The notes: generated by a model not told the origin, from the letters alone. Positions 437-17,730 are shown, counted from the stretch's first letter. The stretch is DNA of 18,390 nucleotides from Pseudomonadota bacterium (GCA_043798915.1 JAZDOG010000013.1:1-18390), one strand, 5' to 3'. Translations and numbers: made by a program.

Positions 437-841
437 ATGCCCGTTTCCCTGTCGAAGCAGAACGATTTAAATCAGCGCATGAAGCGGCTCGGGATAAGCG
501 AGAACGACTTGAGGGAGCACTTCGTTCGTTCATCAGGCGCGGGCGGGCAGAATGTAAACAAGGTCTCGACGTGCGTTGTCTTGAAGCACCTCCCCACGGG
601 CATCAAGGTGAAGTGCCAGAGGGAGAGGAGCCAGGCGCTGAACCGTTTCCTCGCGAGGAGGATCCTTGTCGAGAAGCTCGAGCGGAAGATACTGGGCGAG
701 ATGAGCGCGCTGGAACAGAAGATGTGGAAGGTGAGAAAACAGAAGCGCCGCCGTTCGCGCCGCGCGAAGGAGAAGGTGCTTGCCGAAAAGAGGATCCAGT
801 CCGAGAAGAAGCGCCAGCGTGCGGCGGTCAGAGACTCCTAG
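437..841 (+). CDS. Codon-independent peptidyl-tRNA hydrolase / peptide chain release factor-like protein (RF-1 GGQ domain; ArfB or C12orf65-like ribosome rescue factor), 134 aa
   Basis: RSSGAGGQNVNK, HLPTGIKVKCQ and RSQALNR motifs; no codon-recognition domain; very basic C-terminal tail. Confidence 0.9.
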   Translation: MPVSLSKQNDLNQRMKRLGISENDLREHFVRSSGAGGQNVNKVSTCVVLKHLPTGIKVKCQRERSQALNRFLARRILVEKLERKILGEMSALEQKMWKVRKQKRRRSRRAKEKVLAEKRIQSEKKRQRAAVRDS

Positions 842-3621
842 AATATCAAGGCTGGCGCTATCGGGATCGGCGCCAGCGTCGCCGCTGCCGCGCCTGTGAG
901 TATTTCCGCTCCCAGCAAAAATCCTTCATTTTCTGGTTGTGCATGACTCCGATGGCGCGCTAACCATGCCGCCCCATGATGAATGACGCTGCCCATCCTT
1001 CCTGTCTTATGGTTATTGGGCGGCGAGACGCCCGCGACGACCACTTTTGCTTTGACTGTATTTGCTTCGGCTCCGGATCCACCCGGCCCGGCGCCGCCAG
1101 GACCGGCCGACGGGTCGGTCTTCCATTTCGAAGTGTCGATCTTGATCGTGACGCTCATTCCATGGCCCTTGACGGGCGTGTAGGCTATTTGCCACCCATG
1201 CTGTTTGCCGGCCCCTGACGCCGCCGTCGGGATGTCGGCAGCGGTGCCCTTGCCATTGTCCGAGATTTGCAAGGTGATTTCGTTGCCGACGAGCTTGCCG
1301 TCGACGTCGATCAGGCGATAGTCCGCCTTTGGATCGCTATTGTCGACCCTGCCGCGGATCACTTCGTGGATGGTTCGAAGCAGTTCTTTTTGGATATGGT
1401 CAGGCACGGGGAGGGTTATTTCCAGTTTCGCTATGTTGATAGAGACATCGCGGTTTTTCGCATTGCCTGAGTTCAACCATTTCGCGGCTGCGATGAGGCT
1501 GTCGACGCGTGAGAAATTGAGCGAAGCCAGTTTTTTTATATTGGAAATCACCGTCTCCACATGGCTCGCAACCGCCTTCACCCTTTCTGCAGTGGCGGCG
1601 TCGGGTTTTCCAAAAAGCTTTTCGCATTCATCAATCGCGGCCAGCCACTTTTTATGGAGCGGCGCCAGTTTCTCCCGGAGTTTTTTGCCCAGCGCTCCAA
1701 CTTTCTCGTCCAGGGGCTGAAGCCTCGCCCCGAGGAGGGCAAAATCCGCATCATCTCCGGCGGACGGAGCGGATTTTTTCATCGCCGCGGAGGCATCGGG
1801 GATGAGTTCATCGGACAGCCGCCGTTCAAAATCAGACACGATGGATTCGAAGAGCCTTGTCGCGTCCTCGCTCTGAAACAGTTTGACGAGGCGAGTCGGC
1901 CTGTCCATTCCGGAGGCTGAGTCATGGAGGGTCCTCGCGAGAGACATGCTTTCCACCTCGAGCCTTGCGCCGCCCAGCTCCGATCGCCCGGCCTCGATCA
2001 GCGAGTCGATGGCCTCTTCCACCGCCCGGCCCGGTATCGGGTCGGTCGGGATGTAGGGCATGATAGCGCGGAGAGGTCTGGCGTCGTCGGCGGGGCCTGC
2101 GGGAGGAGGGGGGAGTCGCGGGACAGGAGCGCCGTTTGCAATCGCTTTGGCGAGGGCTTCAGACAGGATGATGATTATCTCGGTCCCGCCTTTCGGAGTC
2201 GATTCGACAATCAACTTCCCTCCATTTCTTTCGGCAAGCCGCCGCATAAAGGAAATGCCGCTCGTCGGGGATGGAGCTCGCATTGCCTCATCCGCGTTGA
2301 AACTGCGGCCGTTGTTCATTATCGACAAAAAACTGCCATCCTCTGGCGACGCAATGCTGATTGTGCGCCCATTGGAGGCGCTGGCTTTCTCGGGGTACGC
2401 ATGTTCCAAAGCGTTCGATATAGCCTCGCGCATTATGAAGAACAGATCGACTCCGGCCTGGCCCGACAGGGCAGTGTGTGGCAACCTTTGTATTTTGATT
2501 GCCACCTTGGCCCAGTCCGCATCGTATTGGAGAGAGGCTACGGCAAATTCGACCGCGGACTCCGCGGTCGAGAGGCTGTAGTTGAAAAGCGGACTAAGAT
2601 ACTTGAGGCGAGTTTTATCGTGGGTGATGGGCCCGACGGCGGTTGCGACAGCCGCGAGCGAGAAGACCGCGTTGTAAACCTTGCGCAGCGTCACGGCGGA
2701 GGCGTCGATGGCCTCGTCCCAGCTGTTGGAAAGATTGCCGGGGAAGAATGAAACTATGTTCTTCAGAAGATGGCCAAGCTCAATCACCTCATCGCGGTCC
2801 TTTGTGGCGAGATCATTTGCCCCATCTCTTGCCTTGATAACCGTGGAGGGGCTCTTCACCGACAGCTCTGCCAGTTTGAGCGCCTCGGGAAAACGCTGCT
2901 CCAGGGCGCGCTGTCTGTGTTCTTCTACCACAGAGTCGTGGATGGCCAGCGCCTCTTCGCCATGGAAAAAGTTTGAGACGGATGCAAGTTTTTCGGCGTC
3001 TGTGACCCTCGGGCGGTCCAGTTTTTTCAGCAGTGATCGGACGGCCCTGTTTGCGCGGGGGTCCTTTCCCTCGATTGCCGCAGCCAGCCGATCGAGCCCG
3101 TCATGCGCGGCTTTCAAACGCGGCGCGGCGTCGGCCTCTGAAACGGGCGCCGGCCCCTCGCCGGCCTTTTCCCCACCCGCGAGGAGCAACTTTTTGATTA
3201 CGGAGGCCACTTTTCTGATGTTGTAGATGGTCCATGCCTTCAACAGCAGCGTCGTGCCATAGATCGTGTAACGCCAAACCCTGCCTATTTTGTCGCTTAA
3301 GGAGATATCCGCGCAGTCTTTTGAAATCGAAGACAGGATGCCTGCATCGGGGAGCTTTTTGCAGATCTCGGCGTCCTTTGAATCCTTCGCGCGATGCCTG
3401 TCCTCCGGTTTATACCAGCTGTTGAAGGCATGGCAGAACTCCGCCTCCTGCGACGTATGGAACGGGATGTATGAATGGATATTACGGTAGGCGCTGAGGT
3501 CGATCGCCTTAAGCTTTTCATCCGGGGCGCACCAGGAGAGCGCCTCGCGATCATTTTGTTTGTCGCAGAGATGAGGTTTCAGCTGCCTTATTATATCCGG
3601 CTGGATGTTGAACCTGGCCAT
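838..3621 (-). CDS. Paralog A (927 aa): 4-Cys N-domain, weak membrane helix, two histidine-kinase-derived modules, conserved C-terminal tail
   Basis: Long ORF. Module 1 has the N-box EAISNALEH, a G1-like NNGRSF and GGKLIVESTPKGGT. Module 2 has ISDNGKG and GHGMSVTIKI but a degenerate N-box. N- and C-terminal motifs are shared with the three neighbours. Confidence 0.85.
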   Translation of the reverse strand: MARFNIQPDIIRQLKPHLCDKQNDREALSWCAPDEKLKAIDLSAYRNIHSYIPFHTSQEAEFCHAFNSWYKPEDRHRAKDSKDAEICKKLPDAGILSSISKDCADISLSDKIGRVWRYTIYGTTLLLKAWTIYNIRKVASVIKKLLLAGGEKAGEGPAPVSEADAAPRLKAAHDGLDRLAAAIEGKDPRANRAVRSLLKKLDRPRVTDAEKLASVSNFFHGEEALAIHDSVVEEHRQRALEQRFPEALKLAELSVKSPSTVIKARDGANDLATKDRDEVIELGHLLKNIVSFFPGNLSNSWDEAIDASAVTLRKVYNAVFSLAAVATAVGPITHDKTRLKYLSPLFNYSLSTAESAVEFAVASLQYDADWAKVAIKIQRLPHTALSGQAGVDLFFIMREAISNALEHAYPEKASASNGRTISIASPEDGSFLSIMNNGRSFNADEAMRAPSPTSGISFMRRLAERNGGKLIVESTPKGGTEIIIILSEALAKAIANGAPVPRLPPPPAGPADDARPLRAIMPYIPTDPIPGRAVEEAIDSLIEAGRSELGGARLEVESMSLARTLHDSASGMDRPTRLVKLFQSEDATRLFESIVSDFERRLSDELIPDASAAMKKSAPSAGDDADFALLGARLQPLDEKVGALGKKLREKLAPLHKKWLAAIDECEKLFGKPDAATAERVKAVASHVETVISNIKKLASLNFSRVDSLIAAAKWLNSGNAKNRDVSINIAKLEITLPVPDHIQKELLRTIHEVIRGRVDNSDPKADYRLIDVDGKLVGNEITLQISDNGKGTAADIPTAASGAGKQHGWQIAYTPVKGHGMSVTIKIDTSKWKTDPSAGPGGAGPGGSGAEANTVKAKVVVAGVSPPNNHKTGRMGSVIHHGAAWLARHRSHAQPENEGFLLGAEILTGAAAATLAPIPIAPALIF

Positions 3622-3684
3622 GGCGTCTTCGGCCCTTTTTTCTTGTGCTGCACTGGGACATCTGCCAAAAAGCGTCTTGCAGTC

Positions 3685-3819
3685 GGCGCTTTAAGAAAGG
3701 GCGGTTGGGTCCCATGCGTTCTGACGGCGGAGAACTCCGCCAGGCCCGGAAGGGAGCAACGGTACCCGATCCGTCCAGAAGTGCCGTGGTCAAACCCGGC
3801 CGCCTTTTCTTAAAGCGCC
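3685..3819. repeat. 135-bp intergenic element with 26-bp terminal inverted repeats (MITE-like or structured RNA)
   Basis: ggcgctttaagaaagggcggttgggt (3685-3710) pairs with acccggccgccttttcttaaagcgcc (3794-3819). The 3 non-Watson-Crick positions are all G-U on the + strand. It contains an internal hairpin ggcggag-aa-ctccgcc. Confidence 0.75.
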
Positions 3820-6045
3820 CTAAAATGGCACGGGCAGCGGTGCCGGAATTGCCGCCCCCGCCGCTGTGCCTGTGAATGTTTCCGCGCTCTGCAAAAATCC
3901 TTCATTTTCTGGCTGTGCATGACTCCGATGGCGCGCAAGCCATGCCGCTCCGTGGCGACTGATTCCTTGTGGCGCGCCTTTGACCGACTTTCCTGTCCGG
4001 TGCTGACCGATCGGCGAGACGCCGGCGACGATCACTTTCGCCTTGTCCGCATCCGCCGGGGCTCCGGCTCCATTCGACCCGGTACTTGCAGGCTTCGGCA
4101 CAGCGGATTTTTCTCCGCCGCCCTTCGGGCCCTGCGGTGCCGGGCCTGAATTGGCGGGACTCAGCCTGATTGTCACCGTCGTCCCTTTATTGAAGTCGGA
4201 GCTGTTATTCATCTCCCAGACGTTTTTCTTCACAAGATCCCGCAGGACGACAAGACCCCTCGCAGCGAGTTTCTGGGGATCGGTCGGCACCTCGACCTGG
4301 TATCCTATTCCATTGTCCGCGGCGCTCAGGGTGCCGTCGAAGTAGTCTATCCGAATCAAATGTGCTTTGCTGTACCGCAGCATATTTGACATCAGTATGC
4401 CCATCGCCAGGTAGAGATCGAAGCCCTTTTCCTCGGATATCGGCAATTGCTTCGGCAACTGCAGGACGACCTTGGTATCCTTCAGACCGGCGCTTTGCGT
4501 GATGACCGCGAGTTTAATGATCGAAGCCACGTCCCTGAATGGATTGAAATCAGGTGTCCTCATGGATTCGAGATAATCCTTGGCAAACAGACCCTCTATG
4601 TTTTCAAGTTCGGCCGGAATGACATTCTCCAGGCCTGTGCGGCTTTTGCCGGCGACGCTTATCAGTCCCAATTGCGGGGCTAGCATTTCACGCCACGCCT
4701 GCTGGGGTGAAGGGTCGGCGATTGCGGAGATCGCCGCGTTCATTCTTTCGCCGAGTTCATTGAGACGATTCCTTGCATCGCTTTCCCCGCTGATTATCCC
4801 CAGGATAGCTGAAGATGGTGTCCTGGAAGCCGAGAGGGCGACTCCGCGGGCCATGGCAGGCAGCCACATGTCCTGCGCCTGCCGCATGTATCTCTGGGCG
4901 AGCAAAGAGTATGTCATCCTCAATTCCCCGGAATTCAGATAATCTTTCGCAAGCCTCATCTTGTCGTCATCCGATCGGGCCCCGTCGCCCAGCGCATCGC
5001 TTGCGGTCTGTGCCCTCTCGAGGAGGAATTGCATGCTGGCGAGGTCGTCGGCAGCAGGGGGCTTGGCGGCTATCCTGCTGTCGGAAGCCAGTGCGGCCTC
5101 GAGCGTGTCCGCCAGCATGCCGATCGCGCCGGTTGCCTTGGTGAGCGGCGGGGTGTCCGCGGCTTTTCCAGGATCGGTTGCAGCCGGCGCCTGGTCCGTT
5201 TTCGGCGCGGGGTCCTTAACCCACGCTTCGAGCCACCGGGCGGCGCGACTCCCAAAACCTAGTCTAGCTTTGCGCGATTCTTCCCGACTCTCGTGCGCCG
5301 CATCGAGGGTCTTCGAAAGTTCGCCCTTCTTCAAACGAGTCTTGAAATAAACCCAAACTGCCGTAAGTGCCGTAATGGCCGCTCCCCCAAGCGCGACCGC
5401 GACTATATGCAGCCTGCCCTTGATCCCGGTGTACTCTTTGGCGACCTCTGCGCAGTCGTCGGAGAGCTGCTGGAGTTCAGCGGGATTGCTTGTGACGAGA
5501 CAGGTCTGGGCTATCGCATTGCGGAGCGCCACCTTCTTCTCTTCGATCTGCGCGTTGATCTTCGCGTCGTTGGGTTTCTTCGCCGCCCTGAGCGCGGCCA
5601 GTTCGCTCAAACCCGTGCTGATCAGACGCGCTTTGGCGCGGAATGTATCATCCCCCATCCTGCTGCGCAGGTCGGCCGACACTCCGTCCGTGATCAATTC
5701 GTGGACGTCGGAATATTCCAGGTTTTGCACCGGCGCGCCCTTTTCATCCCGCCCGTCGATGGCCGCCCTGAGTTTTTTCCGCGCGTCGCTCTGGGTGTCG
5801 GCGCAGAAGTGGTTTGTCTCGGTATAGGCTTTGCTGTAGGCGGCGCAGAACAACACCTCAATGGACTTGTCAACTCCCGGCAACCAATCCAGATAGCCCC
5901 TCGACCTGTAGCTTTTAAGATAGCTGTCGATGTTTATGTCCGGCGGTTTGTCGGCGCAGTAGGCCGCGCTCGATCTGTATGAGCCCCTCCCGCAGATGAG
6001 CGGCGAGATTTGTTTCATGAGCTCGGATTTTATGATGCCAGCCAT
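3820..6045 (-). CDS. Paralog B (741 aa): 4-Cys N-domain with insertion, membrane helix, one HATPase_c-like module, conserved C-terminal tail
   Basis: SD (AAGGAG) before the ATG; hydrophobic helix IVAVALGGAAITALTAVWVYF followed by K/R residues; LMSNMLRYS (N-box), ADNGIGY (G1), KGTTVTIRL. Confidence 0.85.
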   Translation of the reverse strand: MAGIIKSELMKQISPLICGRGSYRSSAAYCADKPPDINIDSYLKSYRSRGYLDWLPGVDKSIEVLFCAAYSKAYTETNHFCADTQSDARKKLRAAIDGRDEKGAPVQNLEYSDVHELITDGVSADLRSRMGDDTFRAKARLISTGLSELAALRAAKKPNDAKINAQIEEKKVALRNAIAQTCLVTSNPAELQQLSDDCAEVAKEYTGIKGRLHIVAVALGGAAITALTAVWVYFKTRLKKGELSKTLDAAHESREESRKARLGFGSRAARWLEAWVKDPAPKTDQAPAATDPGKAADTPPLTKATGAIGMLADTLEAALASDSRIAAKPPAADDLASMQFLLERAQTASDALGDGARSDDDKMRLAKDYLNSGELRMTYSLLAQRYMRQAQDMWLPAMARGVALSASRTPSSAILGIISGESDARNRLNELGERMNAAISAIADPSPQQAWREMLAPQLGLISVAGKSRTGLENVIPAELENIEGLFAKDYLESMRTPDFNPFRDVASIIKLAVITQSAGLKDTKVVLQLPKQLPISEEKGFDLYLAMGILMSNMLRYSKAHLIRIDYFDGTLSAADNGIGYQVEVPTDPQKLAARGLVVLRDLVKKNVWEMNNSSDFNKGTTVTIRLSPANSGPAPQGPKGGGEKSAVPKPASTGSNGAGAPADADKAKVIVAGVSPIGQHRTGKSVKGAPQGISRHGAAWLARHRSHAQPENEGFLQSAETFTGTAAGAAIPAPLPVPF

Positions 6046-6058
6046 GGCTGCTCCTTTT

Positions 6059-9000
6059 CTAGAAAACGGGCACGGCCACCACCGGAGGCGGCGGCGCCGG
6101 GGTAATGCCTAAGAACACCTCGGCACCTTGCTGCTGGACATTCGCAGCATCTGGATGCGATTGCTCTGCCATGCGATGTCGCCAGGCTGCGCCGCGGCGC
6201 TTGGAATCAGGCATCGCTATGCGCGGTCTTGACATGCCGGATACGCCGGCGACGACAATGCGCGGAATCCCGGCCGCCGCTGAAGCGCTGCTGGATACTC
6301 CAGTTTTGCCGAGGGCATCGGCGGGTATAGGCGGCGGTGTTTTGCTGCTTCTTGCCGCCCCTGATCCGCCCGACCCGCTTCCGCCTCTGGGCGCGGGGAA
6401 AACGTCCGCTACCCACTCGTCGGCGATGGTCAGCGTTGCCGTTGTTCCTGTTCCTGGTCTGGAAACGATATCGAGTTTCCAGCCCTTTGCGTCGCAGAGT
6501 TTGCGCAACTCAACGATGCTGTTTTCCGCGCCGTTGTAGCCGATGATTATTTTGAGCGCCTTGCCTTCGCGCGCGGCCGAGACCTCGATCTCCGTTGCGC
6601 CGCTGAGCGCCGGATTGCGAATCATCTTGTAGACGATGCGGAAGAGCTGCGGTCCTTCCTTCGAAGGCACGGATATATTCGTCTCGAGTTTCTTGATTCT
6701 GATGCCGGCCTTGTTGGGCTTTTGCGCCGCCAGCAGGTTCAGCATCCTTGCCGACGCAAGGAGGCCGTTCATATTCGAGAGATTGAATTCTGATCTGGCG
6801 AAGGCAGCGCGGATAGCGCTTTGCTTTTCGTCCGGCAGGTGGTGTGACGCTAAAGCGAGGGCATTGAGGACGTGGCCTGTGTCAATTATCACATCGCCCA
6901 TGCGATGCGTCGCTTTGTTGAAAGCCGCTTCGAAACTGTCGCCGGGGACCGTCATTCCGTTCGCAATAGCCGGGATCACAGGCAGGAGCGCTTTCTGAAG
7001 CTTCGCCAGCTGCTCATTCGTTGCGAGGGCCTTATCGATCGCCTCGTGCAAGTCGTCAAGAGTCTTCGCGCCCGCTTGTTCGTCCCCGTTTTTTATATGC
7101 ATGGCGGCCGAGGTCAGCTCGTCCATGGCTTTTGGCACGGTCTCCCCCAGCACAACCTGTTCGAAGCGGGTTGCGAGGTCGCCCATCAGCCCCAGCGTTT
7201 CTTCGCTGCGAAGCATGGGGGCAAGCCTCCCGAGTCTTTCGATGTCGATAATGAGGTTTTTAACCGCTTCAAATCGATCTCCCGGCGGCAATGCTAACTG
7301 TATTTTGTTCCATTGTTTTTGCGCCCAATCCAGCCCGCTTCTGCCGGCGGGCGCGATCGGCAGCGCCACGATGCCTACTGAAGCGTTCGCCTGGGCCGCG
7401 TCGATCCTTTGCTCGGAAATGAGCTGCGCCTGAGCCAGAGCGACCAGCGCATGTATGTGCTCACGCCCGGTCCAGTCTGCCTGCGTCCAATTCATGTCCC
7501 TTCTGTCGTCGAGCGCCTTCGAGAGGGCTTCGGCCCTTGCGTCGCCGGAAATGAGTTGCGCCTGTGCCGCCTCGATCAGCCTGCCCATGGCGGTTTTCAC
7601 CTGCTCGAGCATGGAGGCAACATTCGAGGCGTCGAAATCATTCCGCGGCGCATAGAAATTTTTCGGGGTTGCCGCGGGCAAAACGTCCAGCGCGGACGGC
7701 GTTGAAATCCACGGGAGATCGATTTCCCGTGTGAAAAAACTCATGCCCCGGACGACCACGCCCACCATTATTTTCGGGGAGGCATCGAAATCAGGCGACG
7801 GCGAGACGTTGATGAACATCGACCCCATGATGGTGGTTTCGTCGGTCACCGTTTCGTTGATTACCGCAGCGATCGCTCCCTGGACGGCGATCAGGAGCCC
7901 CATTCGGTTCTCTATGGGCACCTGCGAAGGAATCAATGGCACCTTCATCTCTATTCTCAGCTTTTTTTCAGCGGCGGCATGAATGTTCAGCGCGACCGCG
8001 AGCGCCATGGTGGAATCGAGCCATTCCAGGTCAAGCCTTTTTGATATGGCATATTCGAAGGCCGTTTCTTCGTCCAGTTTGTCCGGGCGGCCCGCTATCG
8101 GCTTGTGCCATTCCGATTCCGGATCCGTTATGGCATCTTCCGCGTAATCTTCGAGTTTGGAATGATTCGGATCCATTGCCCTGGCAAGGGACATCAGCGT
8201 GGTCCGCATCCCGTAGACGAGGGACCCTTCCAACATATCATTCCATCTCGCGGACCATCTCGCGGATCCGCCGATCGACTGCGGCACGGGCGTGGTTTCC
8301 CTGAGGGCCTTGAGGGCCAGGATGATATTTTGAAGCTCTCCAAGCGGTTGCAAACCGCCCTTGAGCAATTGCGACACTACCCAGTCCGCATCGGGGGCGC
8401 TATACGCGCCATCATCAACTGCAGGCGCGTGCCCATCTTTTTTTCCGATTGCCCGGGCAATGGCGTTCGCAATTTCCACCGCTTCTTTCGACAGCGATGC
8501 CTCTTTTTGATGGGCTATAACGACGTCGCCTGTTGTCAGCGTTGCCTTTTTCCGATGGGCTATAACGGCTTCCGCTATTTGGGGGAGCCAGAGTTGGGCA
8601 AATTGAGGCCAGGCGTCTTCTATGATCGACTTAAGCAAGCCGGCGTTCTCATCGGTGAAGAACGACTCCGCGCCGGAGGCTTTGAGCGCCCGCGCCAGCA
8701 GCCGCAATTTTTCGGCGATATCCTTATTCAAATGCAACGGGTCCGCTGTCTCGAGCCGCCCGGCCGCGGCTTCAATTAAAGCGGATAAAGCGGAGGTGCT
8801 GCTGGGAGCTGGCGGCGGCGCTTCGTTCAGGACCGGGGCCGCGGGCAACGCTACCGCTTCGCCTGACTCTGGCGCTGATGAAACCGACGGGGCTGCGGTT
8901 TCCCGTCCGGGTCGGGGTTGACTCCGGACTCCCACCACTATTTTTTTGGGAGCGCCGGAAAGAGGGGAAGTCGAGATATCGATGGTCGCCCCCTTTGGGG

Positions 9001-10648
9001 CGCCTTTGAGTGTCTTGAAAATCGCCTGCTGCATGGCGATCAGGAATCCGATGGGGTTATTCTCCGGCGTCTTCGCGTCAATCGAGGGCATTCTCATCTC
9101 TATTTGCACGCCTTTTCTGGCGGCGAACTGGGCGCTCAGCACGACCGCGAGCGCCATGGTGGAGTCGAGCCACTCCAGATCGAGCCCCCTCGATATGACA
9201 TATCTGAGAGCGGACTCTTCGTTCAGTTTGTCCGGGCGGTTCTCCATCGGCTTGGGCCATTCCGAATCCTGTTTCGATATGGCGTCTATTGCATACCCTT
9301 CGGGCACGTGTGAAGCAGGGATCATCCCACTGCTGATGGATATCAGGGTGTTTCTCATCCCGGCGCCCAGACCCAGGGCCCCTTGCAACAGATTCATCCA
9401 TCTCTTGGATACGCCATTCGGCTGCGGCTCGGCTGCGGCTTTCAGGAGGTCCTCGGTGATATCCCTGAGGTCTTTCAGCGGCAGACCGCTGTATATGAAC
9501 AATTGCAATAATACCCAGTTGGCGTCCTCGTTTTTATCTTTGGTTATTCCGGCATAGGCATCTGCGGTTTCCACCGCACCTTCCGGCAGTGATTGTCGTG
9601 TTCGATGGGCTACAACGACCCCCGCTATTTTGGGAAACCAGAATTTGGCAAATTGAGTCCAGATATCTGCGAGGGCCGACTTGAATATGCCGGTGTTTTT
9701 GTCGTCGCTCAAGAATGCCGCCTCGCCGCCTGAATCCCGGATTGCCTGCAGCAGCAGCGTCAGCTTCGGCTGCATGTCTTCTGGCTCGGGCGCAGCGGCC
9801 GCATGTGCAGCGACGGGTGGCGGTTGAGGCTCGGCAGTTGTCGGCTGAGGTACAGGTGCCGCAGGCAACGCTACCGCTTCGACTCGCACGGGCGTTGATG
9901 AAGTCGACGGGACATCGACTGCCTTCTGTCTGAGCTTGGGAAAGTTCTTGCCAGTTATCACTATCTCAATCTTCTCACCATCAGCATCGTGGCTGACGTG
10001 TGCCTCTCCGCCTAAATCCTGGACCACTCGCAACAGCTGCTGCATTAGATCGACGCCACTGGGTTTTTGTGGCGATTGAGGTACGGCGGCTTGCTGAGGC
10101 GGGGAGGACGGAGGCGGCGCTTTCCTTTTGCCGGGCTTGTCATCATCGCCGCCCTGGTCGTCGTCATACTTGCGTTTCAGGAATATCGACCCCAGCAACG
10201 CCAGAAAGGCAGCGCCCACCACCCACCTGAGGCCGCGCGTCGAAACGTGCTTGAACATGACGTCGTGGCATTCGGCGCCGATCTTTTCGAGTGCGGCAGG
10301 ATCGGCTCCAGAGCGACCGGGGAGGATATTTTTATTGAGAGCGTTGAAGTCCTGGCAGAAGCGCACCTCGACCGGCGTCTCCCAGGAGAGAAGACTCGAT
10401 GTCGGGCTGTAGCTGTCGAGATTCACCGCCTGACGATTATTCCGGTTGCAATATGGGGCATCCTTCCTTCGAGAAGCTTCCTCCGTCGTTTGCTGGCCGG
10501 GTGCCCTGCTGCCAGGACCGCGCCTGTAAAGATTATTGTAGTAATTTTGGGGTTGATAGGGAGGGACAGTGTTCGCCTTTTCCCCTTCGTTGCAGAGGAA
10601 GGGATCGAGTCTTTCAAGCAGTCCGATGTCTATTATACTGCGCGCCAT
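6059..10648 (-). CDS. Paralog C (1529 aa): 4-Cys N-domain, membrane helix, two internally repeated degenerate modules plus a C-terminal pseudo-HATPase, conserved C-terminal tail
   Basis: Long ORF; membrane helix WVVGAAFLALLGSIFL then KRK; LDLEWLDSTMALAV occurs twice; the final module (GWKLDIVSRPGTGTTATLTI) is clearly homologous to the 679-aa neighbour but has GYNG in place of SDNG and lacks the ATP lid. Confidence 0.88.
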   Translation of the reverse strand: MARSIIDIGLLERLDPFLCNEGEKANTVPPYQPQNYYNNLYRRGPGSRAPGQQTTEEASRRKDAPYCNRNNRQAVNLDSYSPTSSLLSWETPVEVRFCQDFNALNKNILPGRSGADPAALEKIGAECHDVMFKHVSTRGLRWVVGAAFLALLGSIFLKRKYDDDQGGDDDKPGKRKAPPPSSPPQQAAVPQSPQKPSGVDLMQQLLRVVQDLGGEAHVSHDADGEKIEIVITGKNFPKLRQKAVDVPSTSSTPVRVEAVALPAAPVPQPTTAEPQPPPVAAHAAAAPEPEDMQPKLTLLLQAIRDSGGEAAFLSDDKNTGIFKSALADIWTQFAKFWFPKIAGVVVAHRTRQSLPEGAVETADAYAGITKDKNEDANWVLLQLFIYSGLPLKDLRDITEDLLKAAAEPQPNGVSKRWMNLLQGALGLGAGMRNTLISISSGMIPASHVPEGYAIDAISKQDSEWPKPMENRPDKLNEESALRYVISRGLDLEWLDSTMALAVVLSAQFAARKGVQIEMRMPSIDAKTPENNPIGFLIAMQQAIFKTLKGAPKGATIDISTSPLSGAPKKIVVGVRSQPRPGRETAAPSVSSAPESGEAVALPAAPVLNEAPPPAPSSTSALSALIEAAAGRLETADPLHLNKDIAEKLRLLARALKASGAESFFTDENAGLLKSIIEDAWPQFAQLWLPQIAEAVIAHRKKATLTTGDVVIAHQKEASLSKEAVEIANAIARAIGKKDGHAPAVDDGAYSAPDADWVVSQLLKGGLQPLGELQNIILALKALRETTPVPQSIGGSARWSARWNDMLEGSLVYGMRTTLMSLARAMDPNHSKLEDYAEDAITDPESEWHKPIAGRPDKLDEETAFEYAISKRLDLEWLDSTMALAVALNIHAAAEKKLRIEMKVPLIPSQVPIENRMGLLIAVQGAIAAVINETVTDETTIMGSMFINVSPSPDFDASPKIMVGVVVRGMSFFTREIDLPWISTPSALDVLPAATPKNFYAPRNDFDASNVASMLEQVKTAMGRLIEAAQAQLISGDARAEALSKALDDRRDMNWTQADWTGREHIHALVALAQAQLISEQRIDAAQANASVGIVALPIAPAGRSGLDWAQKQWNKIQLALPPGDRFEAVKNLIIDIERLGRLAPMLRSEETLGLMGDLATRFEQVVLGETVPKAMDELTSAAMHIKNGDEQAGAKTLDDLHEAIDKALATNEQLAKLQKALLPVIPAIANGMTVPGDSFEAAFNKATHRMGDVIIDTGHVLNALALASHHLPDEKQSAIRAAFARSEFNLSNMNGLLASARMLNLLAAQKPNKAGIRIKKLETNISVPSKEGPQLFRIVYKMIRNPALSGATEIEVSAAREGKALKIIIGYNGAENSIVELRKLCDAKGWKLDIVSRPGTGTTATLTIADEWVADVFPAPRGGSGSGGSGAARSSKTPPPIPADALGKTGVSSSASAAAGIPRIVVAGVSGMSRPRIAMPDSKRRGAAWRHRMAEQSHPDAANVQQQGAEVFLGITPAPPPPVVAVPVF
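7750..9881 (-). repeat. Intragenic tandem duplication, two units of ~320-370 aa (about 9881-8920 and 8861-7750)
   Basis: Identical 18-mer ggcaacgctaccgcttcg (EAVALP) at 9864-9881 and 8844-8861. Shared peptides include SEWxKP, RPDKLxEE and LDLEWLDSTMALAV (9143-9184 and 7994-8035). Boundaries are approximate. Confidence 0.9.
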
Positions 10649-10694
10649 GGATGTGCCTTCCCTTCAATATCGGTCACACGCCTTCCAGTCCCTC

Positions 10695-10725
10695 TTTTCG
10701 CACTATTGCCGAAAAAGTTGCGTGG
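10695..10725 (-). promoter_or_regulatory. Putative sigma28-like promoter of paralog C (and B)
   Basis: The minus strand reads CCACGCAACTTTTtcggcaatagTGCGAAAA. The 13-mer CCACGCAACTTTT is identical to 17695-17707, with the same 14-nt spacing from GCAAC to a CGAnAA box. Confidence 0.45.
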
Positions 10726-10787
10726 TTTTTTTAGATATTTTTTTGGCTCCGCCAGGGGCGTCCCGTTGCCGTTCAATAGTTGCTCAT

Positions 10788-12827
10788 CTAAAGCCCTGGC
10801 ATGGCCATCGGCACGGCCACCGGAGGTGGTGCCGCTGGGATGGCGCCGAAGAGCACCCCGGCGCCGCGCTGCAGGGCGTCCGAGGCATCCGGATGAGATT
10901 GACTTGCCATGATTCTATGTCGCCAGGCTGCGTCGTGTTTCGGGTGGGGTGGCGACATGCGCGGTTTTGACACGCCTCCGGATACGCCGGCGACGACGAT
11001 GCCTGGCGCCATGGCCGCCGCTGAAACGCTGCCGGAATTTCCAGCGCCGCTACCGGCCCCGGGGGAGGCAGGGGTTTTGCCGCTGCCCGTTGCCCATTCA
11101 TCGGCGATCGAGATCATCACCGTTGTTCCCTTTCCCGGTTCGGAAATGATATCGAACTTCCAGCCGTTTGCGCGGCAGAGTTCCCGCAATATGGCGATTC
11201 CGTTTCCCTTTCCAGATTTGCCGGGACTCATGCGCGTGCCATTCATCGCTGCGCGAAGTTCCTCCTTCGTGAGGCCAGGGCCGTTGTCGGAGATGGCGAT
11301 GTTGAGCTTTCCGTCGCTTTGAGAGGCCGTTGCGGTGACCTGTGTGCCGCCGCTGTGCTGCACGGCATTGTAAAAGCCCTCGAATATGAAGCGGAAGAGC
11401 TGCCGTTTTATCTCTGGCGGCACGGCGGCGTCCGTTTCGAGCGCATTGATTTTGATCTGGATATTGCGCCTTTTCGCCTCCTTTTCGCTCAACCAGCGCG
11501 CTGACGCAAAGAGACCATTGATGCTCGACAGGTCAAATTTTAACCCGACCAGGACACTGCGGATAGCTTCTGGATCTTTTTCATCTATAAGAATGGGCAG
11601 CACGGCAATAAGGGGCGAAAGGATGTTGCCCGTGTCGTGGGCCACTCCTCTCAGCTGTTGTATTGCTGCGGCATCCAGGGCCGTCGCGTCGTCGGGGATA
11701 ACCATCCCCCCTTCAACAGCCTGGATTGCAGACAGGAACTTTCTTTTAAACTCCTGCAGTTGCTCCAGCTTCGCATTGATATCTTTGGCCGCGTCATTCG
11801 CTTTTTTGATCCAATTTTTGCCGAATTCCTGATCCCTTCGTCCTATTAAAGAAGCGCCCTGGGTCATCATGGCCATGATGTTTGGCATCGCCTCCTCCAG
11901 CACGATTTTCTCGAAGCGATCCGCGATGATGCGGATGAGATCAGCAGTCTCGCCGCTCCGGAGAAACGGGGCGAGCCTCCCGAGCCTGCCGGCGGCGGTG
12001 AGAAGTCCTCGGCTTGAATCGGTTTGGTATTCCGGCGGGAGCTTATTCCATTCCTTCCGCACCCACTGCTTTTCGTTCTGGCCGGCCTTGATGAACAGCG
12101 CGTTCGACAGCTCCGAAATGCGCGGGTGGTTGACGAACAGGGCCCGCGCCGCATCGACCAGTGCGACGAGGGTTTTTTCCACCTGATCAAGGAGAGGGGC
12201 GACATTCGCGGCGTCGGAGCCCTCCTTGAGCTCGTACATTTCAGGCTGCGTTGGCCGGGGCGTGGAGATAGGATTCGGGTCGTCAGAAGATTCGGCGCCG
12301 GAATTTTTCTTCAAATCCTCCCTCCCTTGAGGGGAGGGAGTCAGAGGGAGGGTGATCTTTCCCATCGAGGGAGAGGGAAAAGAGGAATCAGGTGTGGGGG
12401 GCACGCGCAATGCCGCGTTTTCTTCGGGAGGATCATCGCCGCCGCGGTTGCGCTTCAGGATCTTTAATATCAGCGCCCCCAGGCCCACCGCCAGAATTCC
12501 CGCGCTTACCCTGCCGATGATGCGCACCCTGACGTGCTTTGCCAGGATACTGCCGCAGTCGTCACTTATCTGTTTGAGCGCCGCGGGGCCGGCTCCGGAC
12601 TGGCCGGAGAGAATGTCTCTGTTGAGCGCATTGAAGTCCCGGCAGAAGCGCACCTCGACCGGCGTTTTCCAGACGAGGGCGCTCGACATCGAGCTGTAGC
12701 TCGTGAGGTCCACCGCCTGACGATTTTTCTGATCGCAGTACGGGGCATCCTTCCTTTTGCCTCCTTCGATGCAGAGAAAGCGGTCCAGCTTTTCAAGCAA
12801 TCCGGTGTCGATCACGCTGAGCGTCAT
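10788..12827 (-). CDS. Paralog D (679 aa): membrane-anchored histidine-kinase-like protein with apparently intact motifs, 4-Cys N-domain and conserved C-terminal tail
   Basis: SD AGGAGG; membrane helix IIGRVSAGILAVGLGALILKIL; H-box-like VAHDTGNIL, N-box EGFYNAVQHS, G1 ISDNGPGL, G2 GKGNGIAI, and SEPGKGTTV. Confidence 0.88.
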   Translation of the reverse strand: MTLSVIDTGLLEKLDRFLCIEGGKRKDAPYCDQKNRQAVDLTSYSSMSSALVWKTPVEVRFCRDFNALNRDILSGQSGAGPAALKQISDDCGSILAKHVRVRIIGRVSAGILAVGLGALILKILKRNRGGDDPPEENAALRVPPTPDSSFPSPSMGKITLPLTPSPQGREDLKKNSGAESSDDPNPISTPRPTQPEMYELKEGSDAANVAPLLDQVEKTLVALVDAARALFVNHPRISELSNALFIKAGQNEKQWVRKEWNKLPPEYQTDSSRGLLTAAGRLGRLAPFLRSGETADLIRIIADRFEKIVLEEAMPNIMAMMTQGASLIGRRDQEFGKNWIKKANDAAKDINAKLEQLQEFKRKFLSAIQAVEGGMVIPDDATALDAAAIQQLRGVAHDTGNILSPLIAVLPILIDEKDPEAIRSVLVGLKFDLSSINGLFASARWLSEKEAKRRNIQIKINALETDAAVPPEIKRQLFRFIFEGFYNAVQHSGGTQVTATASQSDGKLNIAISDNGPGLTKEELRAAMNGTRMSPGKSGKGNGIAILRELCRANGWKFDIISEPGKGTTVMISIADEWATGSGKTPASPGAGSGAGNSGSVSAAAMAPGIVVAGVSGGVSKPRMSPPHPKHDAAWRHRIMASQSHPDASDALQRGAGVLFGAIPAAPPPVAVPMAMPGL
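12316..12380 (-). repeat. In-frame REP-like palindromic element in the linker of paralog D (encodes FPSPSMGKITLPLTPSPQGRED)
   Basis: The minus strand reads ttccctctccctcgatgggaaaga-tcaccctccctctgactccctcccctcaagggagggagga, with a 9-bp stem ctccctccc/gggagggag (12318-12340). This segment has no counterpart in paralog C. Confidence 0.65.
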
Positions 12828-12914: not shown

Positions 12915-14630
12915 ATGGCCTATCAGGTTCTCGCCAGAAAGTATCGTCCGCAGCGGTTCTCCCAGGTTGTGGGGCAGGAGCACGTGACGCAGACGCTCAT
13001 GAACGCGCTCGCCGCCGGCCGCCTCCATCACGCCTACCTCTTCGCCGGGGCCCGCGGCACCGGGAAGACCACTGTTGCCCGCATACTGGCTAAAGCCCTC
13101 AACTGCAAGCAGAAAGAAGGCGCTGAGCCTTGCGGGACGTGCATTCCCTGCACCGAGATCACGGGAGGCGCGTCTTTAGACGTCCAGGAGATAGACGGCG
13201 CGTCAAATACAGGCGTGGACGACGTCCGCGAGCTGAGGGAGCATGCCAGATACATGCCGTCGTCCGGAAAATATAAAATATATATCATCGACGAAGTGCA
13301 CATGCTTTCGGGCAGCGCCTTCAACGCGCTGCTGAAGACCCTGGAGGAGCCCCCCGCGCACGTCGTCTTCATCTTCGCCACGACCGAGGCTCACAAGCTG
13401 CCGGCGACGATACTCTCGCGCTGCCAGCGCTACGACTTCCGCAGAATCCCGCTGCAGGCGATGGCCGACACGCTCGGGCGCATCGCCCTGGAGGAAAAAG
13501 TTGCGGTCGACGTTGACGCGCTGAGGCTCATCGCGCGCGAGGCCACCGGTTCCTTGCGCGACGCTGAATCGCTCCTCGACCAGGCGATCGCGTTCTCGGG
13601 TGGAACAGTCAGCGCCGACACGATCAAGGCGATGCTGGGCTTTCTCGACCGCAAGCTCCTCTTCGACGCGGTCGGTGCGGTGATCGCGCGCGATGCGGCG
13701 CGCGCGCTCGCGGTGCTGGACGAGGTCTTCAAACAGGGCGCGGACCTCTCGCGCTTCGCGATGGATATCCTCGAGCTTTTGCGCCACATGCTCGTTCTCG
13801 CCGAGTGCGGGGATGAGAGGGGGGCCGTGGATCTCCTGCCGGACGAGGTGGGGCAGCTCAAGGCGATGCTTGCGGGTAATGCAGTGCGGGGTCCCGAACT
13901 CCATCAGATGTTCTCGCTCTGGTATCGCGTGGCGGAGGATGTCCCGCGATCGCCGTTTCCAAAGATGCTCCTCGAGGTGGGGCTCATGCGCCTCTGCCGT
14001 GTGGGTCCTGTGAAGCCGATCGAAGAGATAATGGCCAGGATAGATGCAGTGATCGAGCAAGGATCAGAGAGCAACCGCCCGCTTCGGGGAGACTCCTCCT
14101 TGGGAGACAACTTCGGAGGGGAAAACCCCCTCCCCACCGCTGGCGCGGCGGTTCCCCTCCCCAGTCTCCCCAGGAGGAATCTCCCCGCGCAGGCGGTTCC
14201 AGAGGTGAGCCCGGCTAAACCGACCTTTGAGCCGGTGGTGTCGCCGCTCGATACTGTCGCGGAAAAGAGGTGGGAGGAGTTCATGCGCTTTCTCGCCACA
14301 GAGAAACCGCAGATCGCCTCGCTCTTCCAGCACGGCGTGCTCGTCGGGATCGACGACGGCGTCGTGAAGGCGACGTTCGACAATCCGCTCTATTCCGACA
14401 TGCTCTCGGAGGCCTCGAGGAAGGCGCAGGTAGAGGGGCTCTTCGAGGCGTTCTTCAAGAGGCCGATGCGCCTCATGGTTGGCCGCAGCGGCGGCCCGTC
14501 TCCGTCCGGCGCGCGCGGCGAGCAGAAAAAGGAGATGATGCGAGAGGCGCTCGGCAGCGACATCGTCCGCCAGGCAGCCGACATATTAAACGCGAGGGTC
14601 CATGAGGTGAAGGTCGAGGGAGAAAAATAA
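12915..14630 (+). CDS. dnaX: DNA polymerase III subunit gamma/tau
   Basis: YQVLARKYRPQ N-terminus, Walker A GARGTGKTT, Zn-binding cysteines, DEVH, SRC motif; followed by ybaB and recR. Confidence 0.99.
   Translation: MAYQVLARKYRPQRFSQVVGQEHVTQTLMNALAAGRLHHAYLFAGARGTGKTTVARILAKALNCKQKEGAEPCGTCIPCTEITGGASLDVQEIDGASNTGVDDVRELREHARYMPSSGKYKIYIIDEVHMLSGSAFNALLKTLEEPPAHVVFIFATTEAHKLPATILSRCQRYDFRRIPLQAMADTLGRIALEEKVAVDVDALRLIAREATGSLRDAESLLDQAIAFSGGTVSADTIKAMLGFLDRKLLFDAVGAVIARDAARALAVLDEVFKQGADLSRFAMDILELLRHMLVLAECGDERGAVDLLPDEVGQLKAMLAGNAVRGPELHQMFSLWYRVAEDVPRSPFPKMLLEVGLMRLCRVGPVKPIEEIMARIDAVIEQGSESNRPLRGDSSLGDNFGGENPLPTAGAAVPLPSLPRRNLPAQAVPEVSPAKPTFEPVVSPLDTVAEKRWEEFMRFLATEKPQIASLFQHGVLVGIDDGVVKATFDNPLYSDMLSEASRKAQVEGLFEAFFKRPMRLMVGRSGGPSPSGARGEQKKEMMREALGSDIVRQAADILNARVHEVKVEGEK
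14073..14198 (+). repeat. 126-nt palindromic element in-frame within the dnaX linker
   Basis: 24-bp arms cggggagactcctccttgggagac (14085-14108) and gtctccccaggaggaatctccccg (14164-14187) with 2 mismatches; outer stem aaccgcc/ggcggtt; inner stem ggaggggaa/ttcccctcc. Confidence 0.8.
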
Positions 14631-14631
14631 A

Positions 14632-14946
14632 ATGGATATGAATGCATTGATGAAGCAGGCGCAGGAGATGCAGGTGGCGATGGCGAAGAAGCAGGAGGAA
14701 CTCGCCGCGCGCACCTTCGAAGCGAGCGCCGGCGGCGGGATGGTGACGGCGGCCGTGAGCGGAAAGCATGAAGTGGTGAAGCTCTCGATAGACCGCTCGA
14801 TCGTCTCAGCCGACGACGTCGGGATGATCGAGGATCTGGTCATCGCGGCCGTCAACGAGGCGTTCAAAAAAGCCAACGATGCCGCGCAGGAGGCCATGTC
14901 TGGAATGATGGGCGGCCTGGGCGGCCTGAAAAACATGTTCGGATGA
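14632..14946 (+). CDS. ybaB: YbaB/EbfC family nucleoid-associated protein
   Basis: MKQAQEMQ, AGGGMVT and EDLVIAAVNEA motifs; canonical position between dnaX and recR. Confidence 0.97.
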   Translation: MDMNALMKQAQEMQVAMAKKQEELAARTFEASAGGGMVTAAVSGKHEVVKLSIDRSIVSADDVGMIEDLVIAAVNEAFKKANDAAQEAMSGMMGGLGGLKNMFG

Positions 14947-14947
14947 C

Positions 14948-15538
14948 ATGACGAATCCAATCGATCGCTTGGTCCATGAACTTGCGAAGCTGCCCGGGAT
15001 CGGGGAGCGCACTGCCACAAGGCTCGCGTTTTTTATTTTGCGCGAGCCGGACGAGTATGCGCGCTCGCTCGCGCAGTCGCTCATCGATGTCAAGGAGCGC
15101 GTCAAGCTCTGCTCGGAATGCTGCAGCCTGACCGAGGCGGACCCGTGCGCAACCTGCCGCGACCAGCGCCGCAACCAGGAAATTCTCTGCGTCGTCGAGG
15201 ATCCGTCGGACATGCTCGCGGTCGAGCGCACGCGCGCCTTCCGCGGCCGCTATCACATCCTGCACGGCGCGCTCTCGCCGCTGGACGGAGTGGGGCCGGA
15301 CGATCTGAAGATCGCCGAGCTCCTCCGCAGGCTCGAGCGCGGCGGCGTGAGCGAGGTGATCGTCGCGACCAACGCGAACGTCGAGGGCGAGGCGACCGCG
15401 CTCTATCTCCAGAAGGTCATCCGGCCGACCGGCATCAGAATCACGCGGCTCTCATCCGGTATCCCCGTCGGCGGCGATCTCGAATACATCGACGCATCCA
15501 CTCTTTCTCGGGCCTTCGAGGAGCGCCGCGAAATCTGA
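14948..15538 (+). CDS. recR: Recombination mediator RecR
   Basis: HhH motif LPGIGERTA, C4 zinc finger, Toprim domain (CVVE, YHILHGALSPLDG, EGEATA). Confidence 0.99.
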   Translation: MTNPIDRLVHELAKLPGIGERTATRLAFFILREPDEYARSLAQSLIDVKERVKLCSECCSLTEADPCATCRDQRRNQEILCVVEDPSDMLAVERTRAFRGRYHILHGALSPLDGVGPDDLKIAELLRRLERGGVSEVIVATNANVEGEATALYLQKVIRPTGIRITRLSSGIPVGGDLEYIDASTLSRAFEERREI

Positions 15539-15626: not shown

Positions 15627-15662
15627 TATAGATGAGAAGGTTTTAGACAATTGGAGGTCCAT

Positions 15663-16235
15663 ATGTCAGTCAACGGCGTTCAACCGATAGCCACTTACGA
15701 CGGCACGAATCCCGCAACATTTAGTCCCAATGATCCGGGCACGGTTGCCGGGGGCAAGCCTGCCGACAAGAAAACGTCTCCAGTCGCAGGTTCGCAAGCG
15801 ATGATGAAAGAGGCGCTGGGGTGGGCATTCGGGAAGGCAACACAACAGATCGGAATGAACCTTCAGCCTCCGTTCAATGGAACCCCTCAAGCCCCGGCCA
15901 ATCAGCAGGTGGCCAAGGAGAAAGAGGGCGGCAACGATAAGGCAAAGCCTGGTATCACCATTGGGACAGCGCCCGAAAAAGAACCTGCGTCTCCCAAAGG
16001 CGCCCCTTCCGACGATAAGGCTGCGCCTGCCGAGCCACCTTATATAGCGCCGGGAGGGGAGGAGATAGTCAATCCAAATGGGCCCGCGCCCTATGCAAAA
16101 GATGTGATGGCAAGCATACCGGCCACGCAGCCAGCGGGTGAACTTGCCCAAATTACTGCTGACAACCACACACTGGCCGAGGTCACACCAGACCCGGACG
16201 CGGCCTTCTTCGCTACTCTATTGGGCCCGCAATAA
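15663..16235 (+). CDS. Hypothetical Pro/Ala/Gly-rich, probably largely disordered protein (190 aa, MSVNGVQP...)
   Basis: GGAGG at 15653-15657 favours the ATG at 15663 over the TTG at 15651. No recognisable domain, signal peptide or membrane helix. Confidence 0.75.
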   Translation: MSVNGVQPIATYDGTNPATFSPNDPGTVAGGKPADKKTSPVAGSQAMMKEALGWAFGKATQQIGMNLQPPFNGTPQAPANQQVAKEKEGGNDKAKPGITIGTAPEKEPASPKGAPSDDKAAPAEPPYIAPGGEEIVNPNGPAPYAKDVMASIPATQPAGELAQITADNHTLAEVTPDPDAAFFATLLGPQ

Positions 16236-16298
16236 GGCACGGATCAAACCTGATATTGCCCTTACGCTGTCAAGTCAGGGCGGCAAATACTGGTTATT

Positions 16299-16346
16299 AG
16301 AACCTATTCTTTAGACATTATTGTGTTGTAAAGAACCTATTCTTTA
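16299..16346. repeat. Exact 15-bp direct repeat AGAACCTATTCTTTA, two copies
   Basis: Copies at 16299-16313 and 16332-16346, a 33-bp period. Confidence 0.85.
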
Positions 16347-16400
16347 AACCACCTATCAGGGAGAGCAAAAAAGCACGGAGCAAACTCTTGTGTGTCGATG

Positions 16401-17725: not shown

Positions 17726-17730
17726 CAATA

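Follow-up and report, generated by a model that had tools for sequence, protein, structure and literature searches.

A C-terminal tail carried by seven proteins of one bacterial genome, kinase-like paralogs among them: a possible docking or address peptide

The stretch of DNA considered here, called the window, is a whole 18,390-base contig (C104) from the assembly of a Pseudomonadota bacterium (genome G000; 2.34 Mb in 105 contigs). Four consecutive open reading frames (ORFs) on its minus strand, P0001 to P0004, encode paralogs that are 25-38% identical across their last ~450 residues (38% between the C-terminal module of P0003 and P0004), and translation and alignment show that each of the four finishes in a tail of ~70 residues (Table 1). 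In this tail a low-complexity linker leads to the motif [VI][VI]VAGVS, which is followed by a basic spacer of 16-22 residues, by AAW, and then by RHR and SH; after SH come a spacer of 9-10 residues, the motif [GS]A[EG]-x-[FL]-x-G, and an uncharged Pro-rich end. VAGVS, AAW, RHR, and single P, A, G, and P positions are invariant in the four-way alignment. A preliminary description had reported this pattern, and both the pattern and its placement hold in each protein, with the first motif starting at nucleotides 1044, 4035, 6259, and 11000; its range of 15-21 residues for the first spacer is correct except in P0002, which has 22. The linkers vary in length (about 24-51 residues, counted from the sequence), and the 45 residues preceding the tail are 60-78% Gly, Ser, Ala, Pro, and Thr in these four paralogs (60-87% when the three further carriers described below are included).

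Table 1. Positions of the features in the window and at related loci (linker limits are approximate; positions outside the window are those of the contig named)
Feature	Location	Strand	Description
ORF with GGQ motif (SGAGGQNVNK)	437-841	+	134 aa; converges on P0001 stop codon, 4-base overlap
P0001	838..3621	-	927 aa; N-terminal Cys-motif region, HATPase_c 392-487, second degenerate HATPase-like module, linker, tail
P0001 tail	841..1044	-	residues 860-927; VVVAGVS, AAWLARHRSH, GAEILTG, ends ...APALIF; profile E 2.5e-22
P0001 linker	1045..1116	-	Gly/Pro/Ser/Ala-rich, after second HATPase-like module; 60% G/S/A/P/T
SRP RNA gene (ffs)	3703-3804	+	signal recognition particle RNA, Rfam RF00169, 58.3 bits; between P0001 and P0002, ~9 kb from dnaX
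P0002	3820..6045	-	741 aa; N-terminal Cys-motif region, hydrophobic segment 214-232, degenerate HATPase, linker, tail
P0002 tail	3823..4035	-	residues 671-741; ends ...PLPVPF; profile E 4.1e-22
P0002 linker	4036..4158	-	~41 residues, 67% G/S/A/P/T
P0003	6059..10648	-	1529 aa; Cys-motif region with insert, hydrophobic segment 139-157, P0004-like C-terminal module, linker, tail
P0003 tail	6062..6259	-	residues 1464-1529; ends ...VAVPVF; profile E 1.8e-22
P0003 linker	6260..6412	-	~51 residues, 78% G/S/A/P/T
P0004	10788..12827	-	679 aa; Cys-motif region, hydrophobic segment 103-121, H-box-like AHDTGN, HATPase_c, linker, tail
P0004 tail	10791..11000	-	residues 610-679; ends ...MAMPGL; profile E 2.8e-18; pLDDT 30-48
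P0004 linker	11001..11093	-	~31 residues
HATPase_c of P0004	11106..11405	-	residues 475-574; Pfam; AlphaFold2 pLDDT about 80-92
N-terminal Cys region of the four paralogs	12498-12827, 10199-10648, 3292-3621, 5716-6045	-	~100 residues, common to all four
ORF	15651-16235	+	no Pfam or NCBIfam match
ORF	16427-17413	-	no Pfam or NCBIfam match
ORF	17716-18390	+
Extra carrier	C27 8234-10399		721 aa; tail HMM
Extra carrier	C27 10419-12575		718 aa; tail HMM
Extra carrier	C61 296-2398		700 aa; tail HMM
G004 class-A ortholog	9761-12304 of its contig
G008 class-A ortholog	4153-6912 of its contig

The four proteins differ in how much of a histidine kinase ATPase domain they retain. Against Pfam HATPase_c (PF02518, cut-off 26.4 bits), P0004 scores 50.7 bits (E 3e-13) and P0001 44.5 bits (E 2e-11), the latter from its first, internal module; P0002 reaches only 15.1 bits (E 0.031), which is under the cut-off, and P0003 has no Pfam match of any kind, HATPase_c included. 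The Asn-box, DxGxG, and GxGxG motifs of the HATPase family occur together only in P0004 when the four paralogs are aligned. The tail is thus kept despite catalytic decay, as the preliminary description had maintained. At their other end the paralogs share a Cys region with three invariant Cys and invariant Arg, Tyr, and Phe, which precedes the hydrophobic segment; it has no signal-peptide-like start and belongs to no Pfam family, and a profile of it matches only G000 (4), G004 (1), and G008 (2) among 22 genomes of the order. A strongly hydrophobic segment follows this region in three of the four (P0002-P0004) by hydropathy scan. (In P0003 the Cys region carries a 36-residue insert, and two similar blocks of an internal repeat of ~300-400 residues can be seen by eye ahead of the P0004-like module.)

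A hidden Markov model (HMM) of the four tails was run on the 31,289 six-frame ORFs of G000. The window tails were recovered at E 1e-29 to 9e-38, and three further ORFs followed at E 1.5e-4, 3.4e-3, and 8.1e-3, the next best match being at 0.65. These three, a pair on contig C27 (C27a and C27b) and one on contig C61, hold a diverged copy of the tail at their very C-terminus behind a Gly-rich linker; the seven carriers are spread over three loci (window, C27, and C61), and every tail is C-terminal. The pattern goes beyond what chance would give, and the feature is real and reproducible. VAGVS is invariant in all seven, together with three further columns (A, R, and P). The last 20 residues contain 0-1 charged residues and 3-6 prolines in each carrier, the ends are non-polar (F, L, or P; Phe in five of the seven), and the net charge of the tails (K+R minus D+E) is 0 to +4, with 2-5 His in addition. 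A profile of the seven tails, searched against 1,835,955,588 representative proteins, returned exactly these seven (E 1e-14 to 2e-22) and no other match at E <= 0.001. The same profile gave only two matches in 40 related genomes (E about 2e-3), both of which were rejected as spurious, one lying antisense to a long ORF (read from its sequence as a probable lytic transglycosylase) and the other being interrupted by stop codons. Within G000, [VI][VIR]VAGVS occurs in no other six-frame ORF of at least 40 aa, and a 479-aa ORF on C98 with a similar Pro-rich end was dropped, having neither VAGVS nor GAE-x-F. Word-index searches with the P0004 tail or with P0004 residues 1-470 returned the query itself only, and the ESM Atlas gave no usable feature match for the P0004 tail and structure matches that were all at TM < 0.5, from a low-confidence model. 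In the sequences covered by these searches, the tail in its present form is unique to the G000 genome, and it is not explained by any known family.

The bodies of the three additional carriers are more distant from the window proteins. The Pfam gathering score for HATPase_c is reached by three of the seven carriers, P0004, P0001, and C27a (35.0 bits, E 2e-8). By BLAST, C27a has short fragments of the HATPase end in common with P0003 and P0004, and only such HATPase-end fragments (E 1e-4 to 2e-3) connect the C27 pair with the window proteins. C27b is a degenerate paralog of C27a without a Pfam HATPase match, and its tail, counted from the sequence, lies ~130 residues past a degenerate HATPase-like end. 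In C61 no HATPase is detected by Pfam, BLAST, or hhalign (hhalign probability 0.8% against an alignment of the family HATPase regions), and outside the tail its body has no BLAST similarity to the other six carriers. An AlphaFold2 model of this body (3-row alignment, mean predicted local distance difference test score (pLDDT) 49.8) is too poor for fold assignment; Foldseek found nothing for it in the PDB at E <= 0.001, and VIA-align gave a best Z of 7.7 in a wide search, on a helical part, and a Z of 6.6, over 82 aligned residues, for the domain preceding the linker, both under the level deemed meaningful. A word-index search with C61 residues 140-620 returned the query plus one relative, P0008, which is 35% identical; its linker is Gly-rich, and its short acidic end gives only a loose alignment. 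A relative in G010 (33% identity) is without the tail. The preliminary description had proposed that a sorting signal would reveal itself by turning up on unrelated proteins. The tail does occur beyond the four paralogs, including on C61, whose body has no detectable relationship to theirs, but it is found on no recognisably unrelated enzyme family.

Structure prediction is consistent with a tail that stands apart from the enzyme. When AlphaFold2 is applied to P0004 residues 400-679 with a 6-row alignment, the HATPase core is modelled at pLDDT about 80-92 and the linker and tail at 30-48, with no packing of the tail onto the core, a weak negative given so shallow an alignment; the only feature within the tail is a low-confidence helical tendency over AAW..RHR..SH. 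Over the last 19 residues the Kyte-Doolittle mean is 1.46-1.89 in six of the seven carriers, and in C27a and C61 this C-terminal window is the most hydrophobic segment of the whole protein. An uncharged hydrophobic ending of this Pro-rich type is found in 11 of the 3,341 six-frame ORFs of at least 200 aa, and 7 of the 11 are the carriers. Despite this hydropathy, AlphaFold2 shows no helix at the tail end, and the prolines within the last 20 residues argue against a transmembrane helix there. A three-copy prediction of a tail complex scored 0.02 (mark 0.42), which weighs neither for nor against binding. Because the linker is variable, no packing is modelled, the tail is present at two other loci, and VAGVS is kept in seven of seven, the tail is a module separable from the catalytic fold. 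A tail that packs onto the HATPase domain as part of its fold, the outcome that the preliminary description had set against its own view, finds no support in the model, in the variable linkers, or in the distance between the C27b tail and the HATPase-like end.

The preliminary description had also held that the tail is under selection independent of kinase activity. To compare tails with body windows, the proportions of synonymous (pS) and nonsynonymous (pN) differences were obtained from Nei-Gojobori counts. For P0001/P0002 the tail pS is 0.29-0.31, against a body value of 0.68 +/- 0.07 (minimum 0.54, n=54); for C27a/C27b the linker and tail pS is 0.24-0.31, against 0.70 +/- 0.06 (minimum 0.58, n=46); and for P0003/P0004 the tail pS is 0.38, against 0.56 +/- 0.10 (minimum 0.40, n=50). 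The tails within these neighbouring pairs are 58-63% identical, and the ratio of nonsynonymous to synonymous divergence (dN/dS) of the P0001/P0002 tails is 0.87. Between loci, tail pS is 0.64-0.91, which is saturated, and pN is 0.42-0.58. Since VAGVS is invariant in all seven copies despite these saturated synonymous sites, this first motif looks to be under selection, and the survival of VAGVS, the motif order, and the terminal position through the divergence between loci argues that the motifs are selected. In four of the seven copies VAGVS is written with the identical codon string GTC GCC GGC GTA TCC, including the rare GTA (7% usage), a weak indication of an older exchange between loci, the four copies being two independent pairs. 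The earlier interpretation is thus partly supported: VAGVS looks to be selected and the tail behaves as a module of its own, but part of the identity within pairs is the product of gene conversion.

Outside G000, single class-A orthologs are found divergent beside dnaX in two other genera of the same taxonomic family (G004 and G008); a third relative is G003_902, by its match to the N-terminal region of class A. In G003 the C27 locus has a syntenic counterpart (mltG, two kinase-like genes, and an amidohydrolase), in which the gene names rest on position and sequence only. The kinase-like pair lies between mltG/yceG and the amidohydrolase at 8234-12575 in L001 (G000:C27) and at 3468-8376 in L120 (G003:C2); by BLAST its members are not simple one-to-one orthologs, G003_536 being closer to the class-A HATPase than to C27a. 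The layout is kept in all of the HATPase-type relatives, with 50-90 residues of C-terminal extension joined to the catalytic domain through a low-complexity linker, and the tails are alike within a genome and differ between genomes. In G003 the net charge is -10 to -11 in the three extensions examined, of which one belongs to a class-A-like protein and the other two to proteins of the syntenic MltG locus, and these finish, as the G000 tails do, in an uncharged Pro-containing stretch; a 2-row profile of G003 tails matches only those two proteins in 5 genomes. Likenesses picked out by eye were set aside: GG[VS]AS and G[AT]xx[FM]VG in the ortholog extensions are anecdotal, given their profile scores (see below), and an 'FAGF' likeness linking the C-terminus of the G008 ortholog with the neighbour downstream of it falls short of significance in BLAST (E 7.5). 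Downstream of this G008 ortholog are two long paralogous ORFs without a Pfam match (L030 (G008:C4) 7157-11999, plus strand), which appear by eye to have a common motif around 'HLEFGG'. Two tRNA genes sit on the opposite strand within the upstream part of the first of these open frames, and for this reason its true start is probably later.

The remainder of the window holds genes of other kinds. The plus strand from 12915 to 15538 contains dnaX, a 104-aa ORF (14632-14946), and recR. In G004, ffs lies directly upstream of dnaX (L022 9717-9817) with the single class-A ortholog divergent from it, and because of this arrangement P0002-P0004 seem, in G000, to be insertions between ffs and dnaX. The ORF with the GGQ motif that converges on P0001 resembles, judging by its sequence alone, a small RF-1-domain or ArfB-type peptidyl-tRNA hydrolase. 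The G+C content is 49% in 16001-17000, against 56-64% across most of the contig, and because of this low value the stretch may be foreign DNA. An overlapping plus-strand gene beneath the tails was considered and rejected, as the plus-strand ORFs there are inconsistent between copies.

Taken together, these observations lead us to favour, tentatively and short of calling it probable, the reading that the tail is a flexibly tethered docking or co-localisation (address) peptide on kinases and pseudokinases. The tail would be a disordered C-terminal extension on a flexible Gly/Ser/Ala/Pro-rich linker, presenting three short motifs (VAGVS; AA.-basic; GAE-x-[FL]-x-G) and a ~20-residue uncharged, Pro-rich hydrophobic end. 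It would bring the seven carriers (a histidine kinase that appears intact, with several pseudokinase-like relatives) to a common site, which may be a shared partner protein, each other, or a membrane surface, and the carriers gathered there would work as one signalling cluster. The uniformity of the tails within the genome and the divergence of the ortholog extensions could then reflect gene conversion between neighbours together with selection for fitness to the same partner. What recommends this reading is the combination of a flexible linker, three conserved islands, variable spacers, a strict C-terminal position, and divergent signalling carriers, with tails that are uniform within the genome and diverged between genera. 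As would be expected of a docking peptide, the linker is variable and predicted to be disordered (pLDDT < 50), and the motif at the extreme C-terminus is common to all seven. That the tail binds something, and what it would bind, we infer.

Several points weigh against this reading. Because the tails of a pair are far lower in synonymous divergence than the bodies, their identity is largely recent exchange of 3' ends by gene conversion and not purifying selection; between loci the tail pN/pS is only about 0.6-0.75, on saturated values, from which it follows that most of the 70 residues are weakly constrained. The extensions of the orthologs in other genera score at most 4.8 bits against the tail profile, which is not significant, and the specific tail motifs are therefore neither old nor general. 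The neighbourhoods offer no candidate partner, no small conserved gene accompanies the three loci, and the neighbours are housekeeping genes (the RF-1-like ORF, ffs, dnaX, and recR in the window; mltG, ruvX, and amidohydrolases at C27). The predicted disorder, coming from a 6-row AlphaFold2 alignment, is weak evidence, and everything is drawn from one metagenome-style assembly in 105 contigs.

If the tail has no function of its own, it could be an ancestral, fast-drifting extension of an expanding kinase-like superfamily, homogenised by tandem gene conversion. The low tail pS of the neighbouring pairs (0.24-0.38, against body means of 0.56-0.70), the P0001/P0002 dN/dS, the non-matching extensions of the G004, G008, and G003 orthologs, and the restriction of the tail to these proteins among all those searched are as this explanation would have them. 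Drift and conversion do not readily account, however, for a VAGVS that is the same in seven of seven copies across saturated between-locus divergence, for the keeping of three-motif order, C-terminal position, and Pro-rich uncharged end between loci, or for the presence of the tail on C61, whose body is not detectably related to those of the other carriers; we regard the explanation as rather unlikely. A narrower possibility, a sub-case of the address-tag reading, is that the Pro-rich end and its basic flank hold the soluble carriers (the C27 pair and C61) at the inner membrane face, beside the membrane-spanning window paralogs, as a peripheral membrane or interface anchor. The hydropathy of the end, its prominence in C27a and C61, its near lack of charge behind a net basic region, and the rarity of such endings among the long ORFs all fit, but the prolines do not suit a transmembrane helix and none is modelled, the similar end in G003 has an acidic flank that would repel anionic lipids, and a hydrophobic segment near the N-terminus is already present in three of the four window proteins, which together leave this anchor unlikely.

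The preliminary description had preferred an export, secretion, or sorting signal that moves the carriers out of the cytoplasm, and a common ~70-residue tail at the extreme C-terminus of several proteins, behind a Gly-rich linker and ending in Phe in most of them, is the kind of feature that invites this view. Hydropathy scanning finds no N-terminal hydrophobic segment in P0001, C27a, C27b, or C61, as would be expected of C-terminal-signal substrates in the case of the C27 and C61 proteins; in P0002-P0004 the first such segment begins only at residues 103-214, so that the scan shows no signal-like N-terminal segment in any of the carriers. P0004, with a complete HATPase and an H-box-like motif, and the three paralogs with an internal anchor have instead the layout of inner-membrane sensor kinases, and because an intact ATP-binding kinase domain, which in P0004 has to be cytoplasmic, follows that anchor, the C-terminus is probably cytoplasmic, which makes export unlikely. 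No sorting-domain, repeats-in-toxin (RTX), or type IX secretion system (T9SS) tail model matches the four window proteins in Pfam/NCBIfam at E <= 0.1 or the C27 and C61 proteins in Pfam at E <= 0.01 and 0.1; the Pfam scans of the seven carriers contain no HemolysinCabind or other RTX model, and the linkers have almost no Asp, unlike RTX nonapeptide repeats. A sortase-type ending, in which a transmembrane helix is followed by a basic cluster at the very end, was not found in the tails, whose basic residues lie upstream of the hydrophobic stretch. Machinery models, checked with positive controls, were searched in G000, which is estimated from marker genes to be 97.2% complete: sortase/exosortase (PF04203, PF09721) has 0 matches, although in an incomplete assembly absence is unproven, and VirB4 (PF03135), TssC (PF05943), and the encapsulin shell (PF04454, controls positive in 3 genomes) likewise have 0. 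With the tail confined to carriers of no recognisably unrelated enzyme family as well, the export proposal is not borne out, and we give it very little credence. Scarcely less improbable is a tail that acts as degron or processing tag, through which a PDZ protease or one of the AAA+ proteases (of FtsH, Lon, or ClpXP type) would turn over all seven proteins together. Such proteases start on unstructured non-polar termini, and a long extension predicted to be disordered and finishing in F, L, or P would serve; three ordered motifs spread over 70 residues are, however, far more than a degron requires, the Pro-rich endings are unlike LAA-type tags, and nothing in the data links the loci with a protease. 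Self-association or polymerisation, in which the beta-prone VVVAGVS and GAEVFLG would zip together the tails of different carriers, draws on the presence of two hydrophobic motifs separated by a variable spacer and on the closer likeness of tails between neighbouring genes, which would suit matched pairs. Gene conversion explains that likeness more simply, AlphaFold2 shows no strands in the tail, and no positive evidence speaks for this proposal, which we consider highly improbable.

If the docking reading is correct, seven otherwise dissimilar proteins are parts of one signalling assembly in an uncultured lineage, and the tail peptide could be used as bait for finding its hub. A bolder version, which we think doubtful, is that the tail is a genome-specific 'zip code', in which interchangeable tags that co-evolve across the genome would assemble six pseudokinase-like proteins and an active kinase on a scaffold or on each other. 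The equally doubtful extension of this idea is that the tags, basic in G000 and acidic in the sister genus, would be a cytoplasmic counterpart of the dockerin-cohesin principle. No description of this tail on histidine-kinase-like proteins, or of such a signalling counterpart of dockerin-cohesin pairing, was found in the open-access literature searched. The locus is in addition a clean, small example of the way in which gene conversion among tandem paralogs can pass for purifying selection, and of a disordered C-terminal extension that is uniform within a genome and unrecognisable between genera; if drift and conversion are all there is to the tail, it has no wider importance.

Among known systems, the PEP-CTERM, GlyGly-CTERM, and MYXO-CTERM proteins combine a signal peptide with a signature motif, a transmembrane helix, a basic cluster, and a cognate enzyme. 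The LPXTG sorting signal has a similar layout of motif, transmembrane helix, and terminal basic cluster, as one account sets out (PMC4617865). Like the present tail, these sortase and exosortase signals are tags of a few dozen residues that several proteins of one genome have in common at their C-terminus, and they too include a hydrophobic stretch close to the end; the tail is unlike them in that its basic stretch comes before the hydrophobic part, which is Pro-rich, and in that the hydropathy scan shows no signal-like segment. Bacterial tail-anchored membrane proteins reportedly have helical transmembrane segments (10.1101/2023.11.02.564894); with these the tail has in common that basic residues come before an uncharged stretch of ~20 residues at the very C-terminus, but it differs from them in its prolines and in the lack of a predicted helix. 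For an address tag that co-evolves across a genome, the closest parallel is with the dockerins of cellulosomal enzymes, which are, like the tail, C-terminal modules of ~70 residues behind a low-complexity linker; they occur on many different proteins of one genome, with species-specific scaffold pairing. Dockerins are extracellular, folded, Ca-binding modules of duplicated EF-hand-like type with a Pfam family, whereas the tail is probably cytoplasmic, is predicted to be disordered, and belongs to no family.

Closer in mechanism may be peptides that recruit partners from the end of a tether. The C-terminal peptide of FtsZ is a precedent for docking of this kind. [quoted passage not shown] The SSB and FtsZ tips resemble the tail in having a disordered Gly/Pro-rich linker, a conserved peptide with a hydrophobic or aromatic last residue, and a function in partner docking; they are acidic, short, and universally conserved on a single hub protein, whereas the tail is basic and long, and is carried in one genome by seven client-like proteins. 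The C-terminal pentapeptide of chemoreceptors, likewise on a tether, is reported to recruit CheR and CheB (PMC7390727, 10.1101/2024.03.07.583918, PMC8609364). Both cases involve cytoplasmic signalling proteins in which several paralogs of one genome bear the same extreme C-terminal motif after a flexible linker, and in both the motif stands apart from the fold that catalyses or signals and varies between lineages. The pentapeptide differs in having 5 residues, compared with ~70 here with three motifs and a Pro-rich end, and in showing no sequence similarity to the tail; its carriers are methyl-accepting chemotaxis proteins with a known partner, whereas the carriers here are HATPase-type, kinase-like proteins with a putative one. 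Because there is no sequence relationship, the chemoreceptor pentapeptide and the SSB tip are analogies of mechanism and not families to which the tail would belong.

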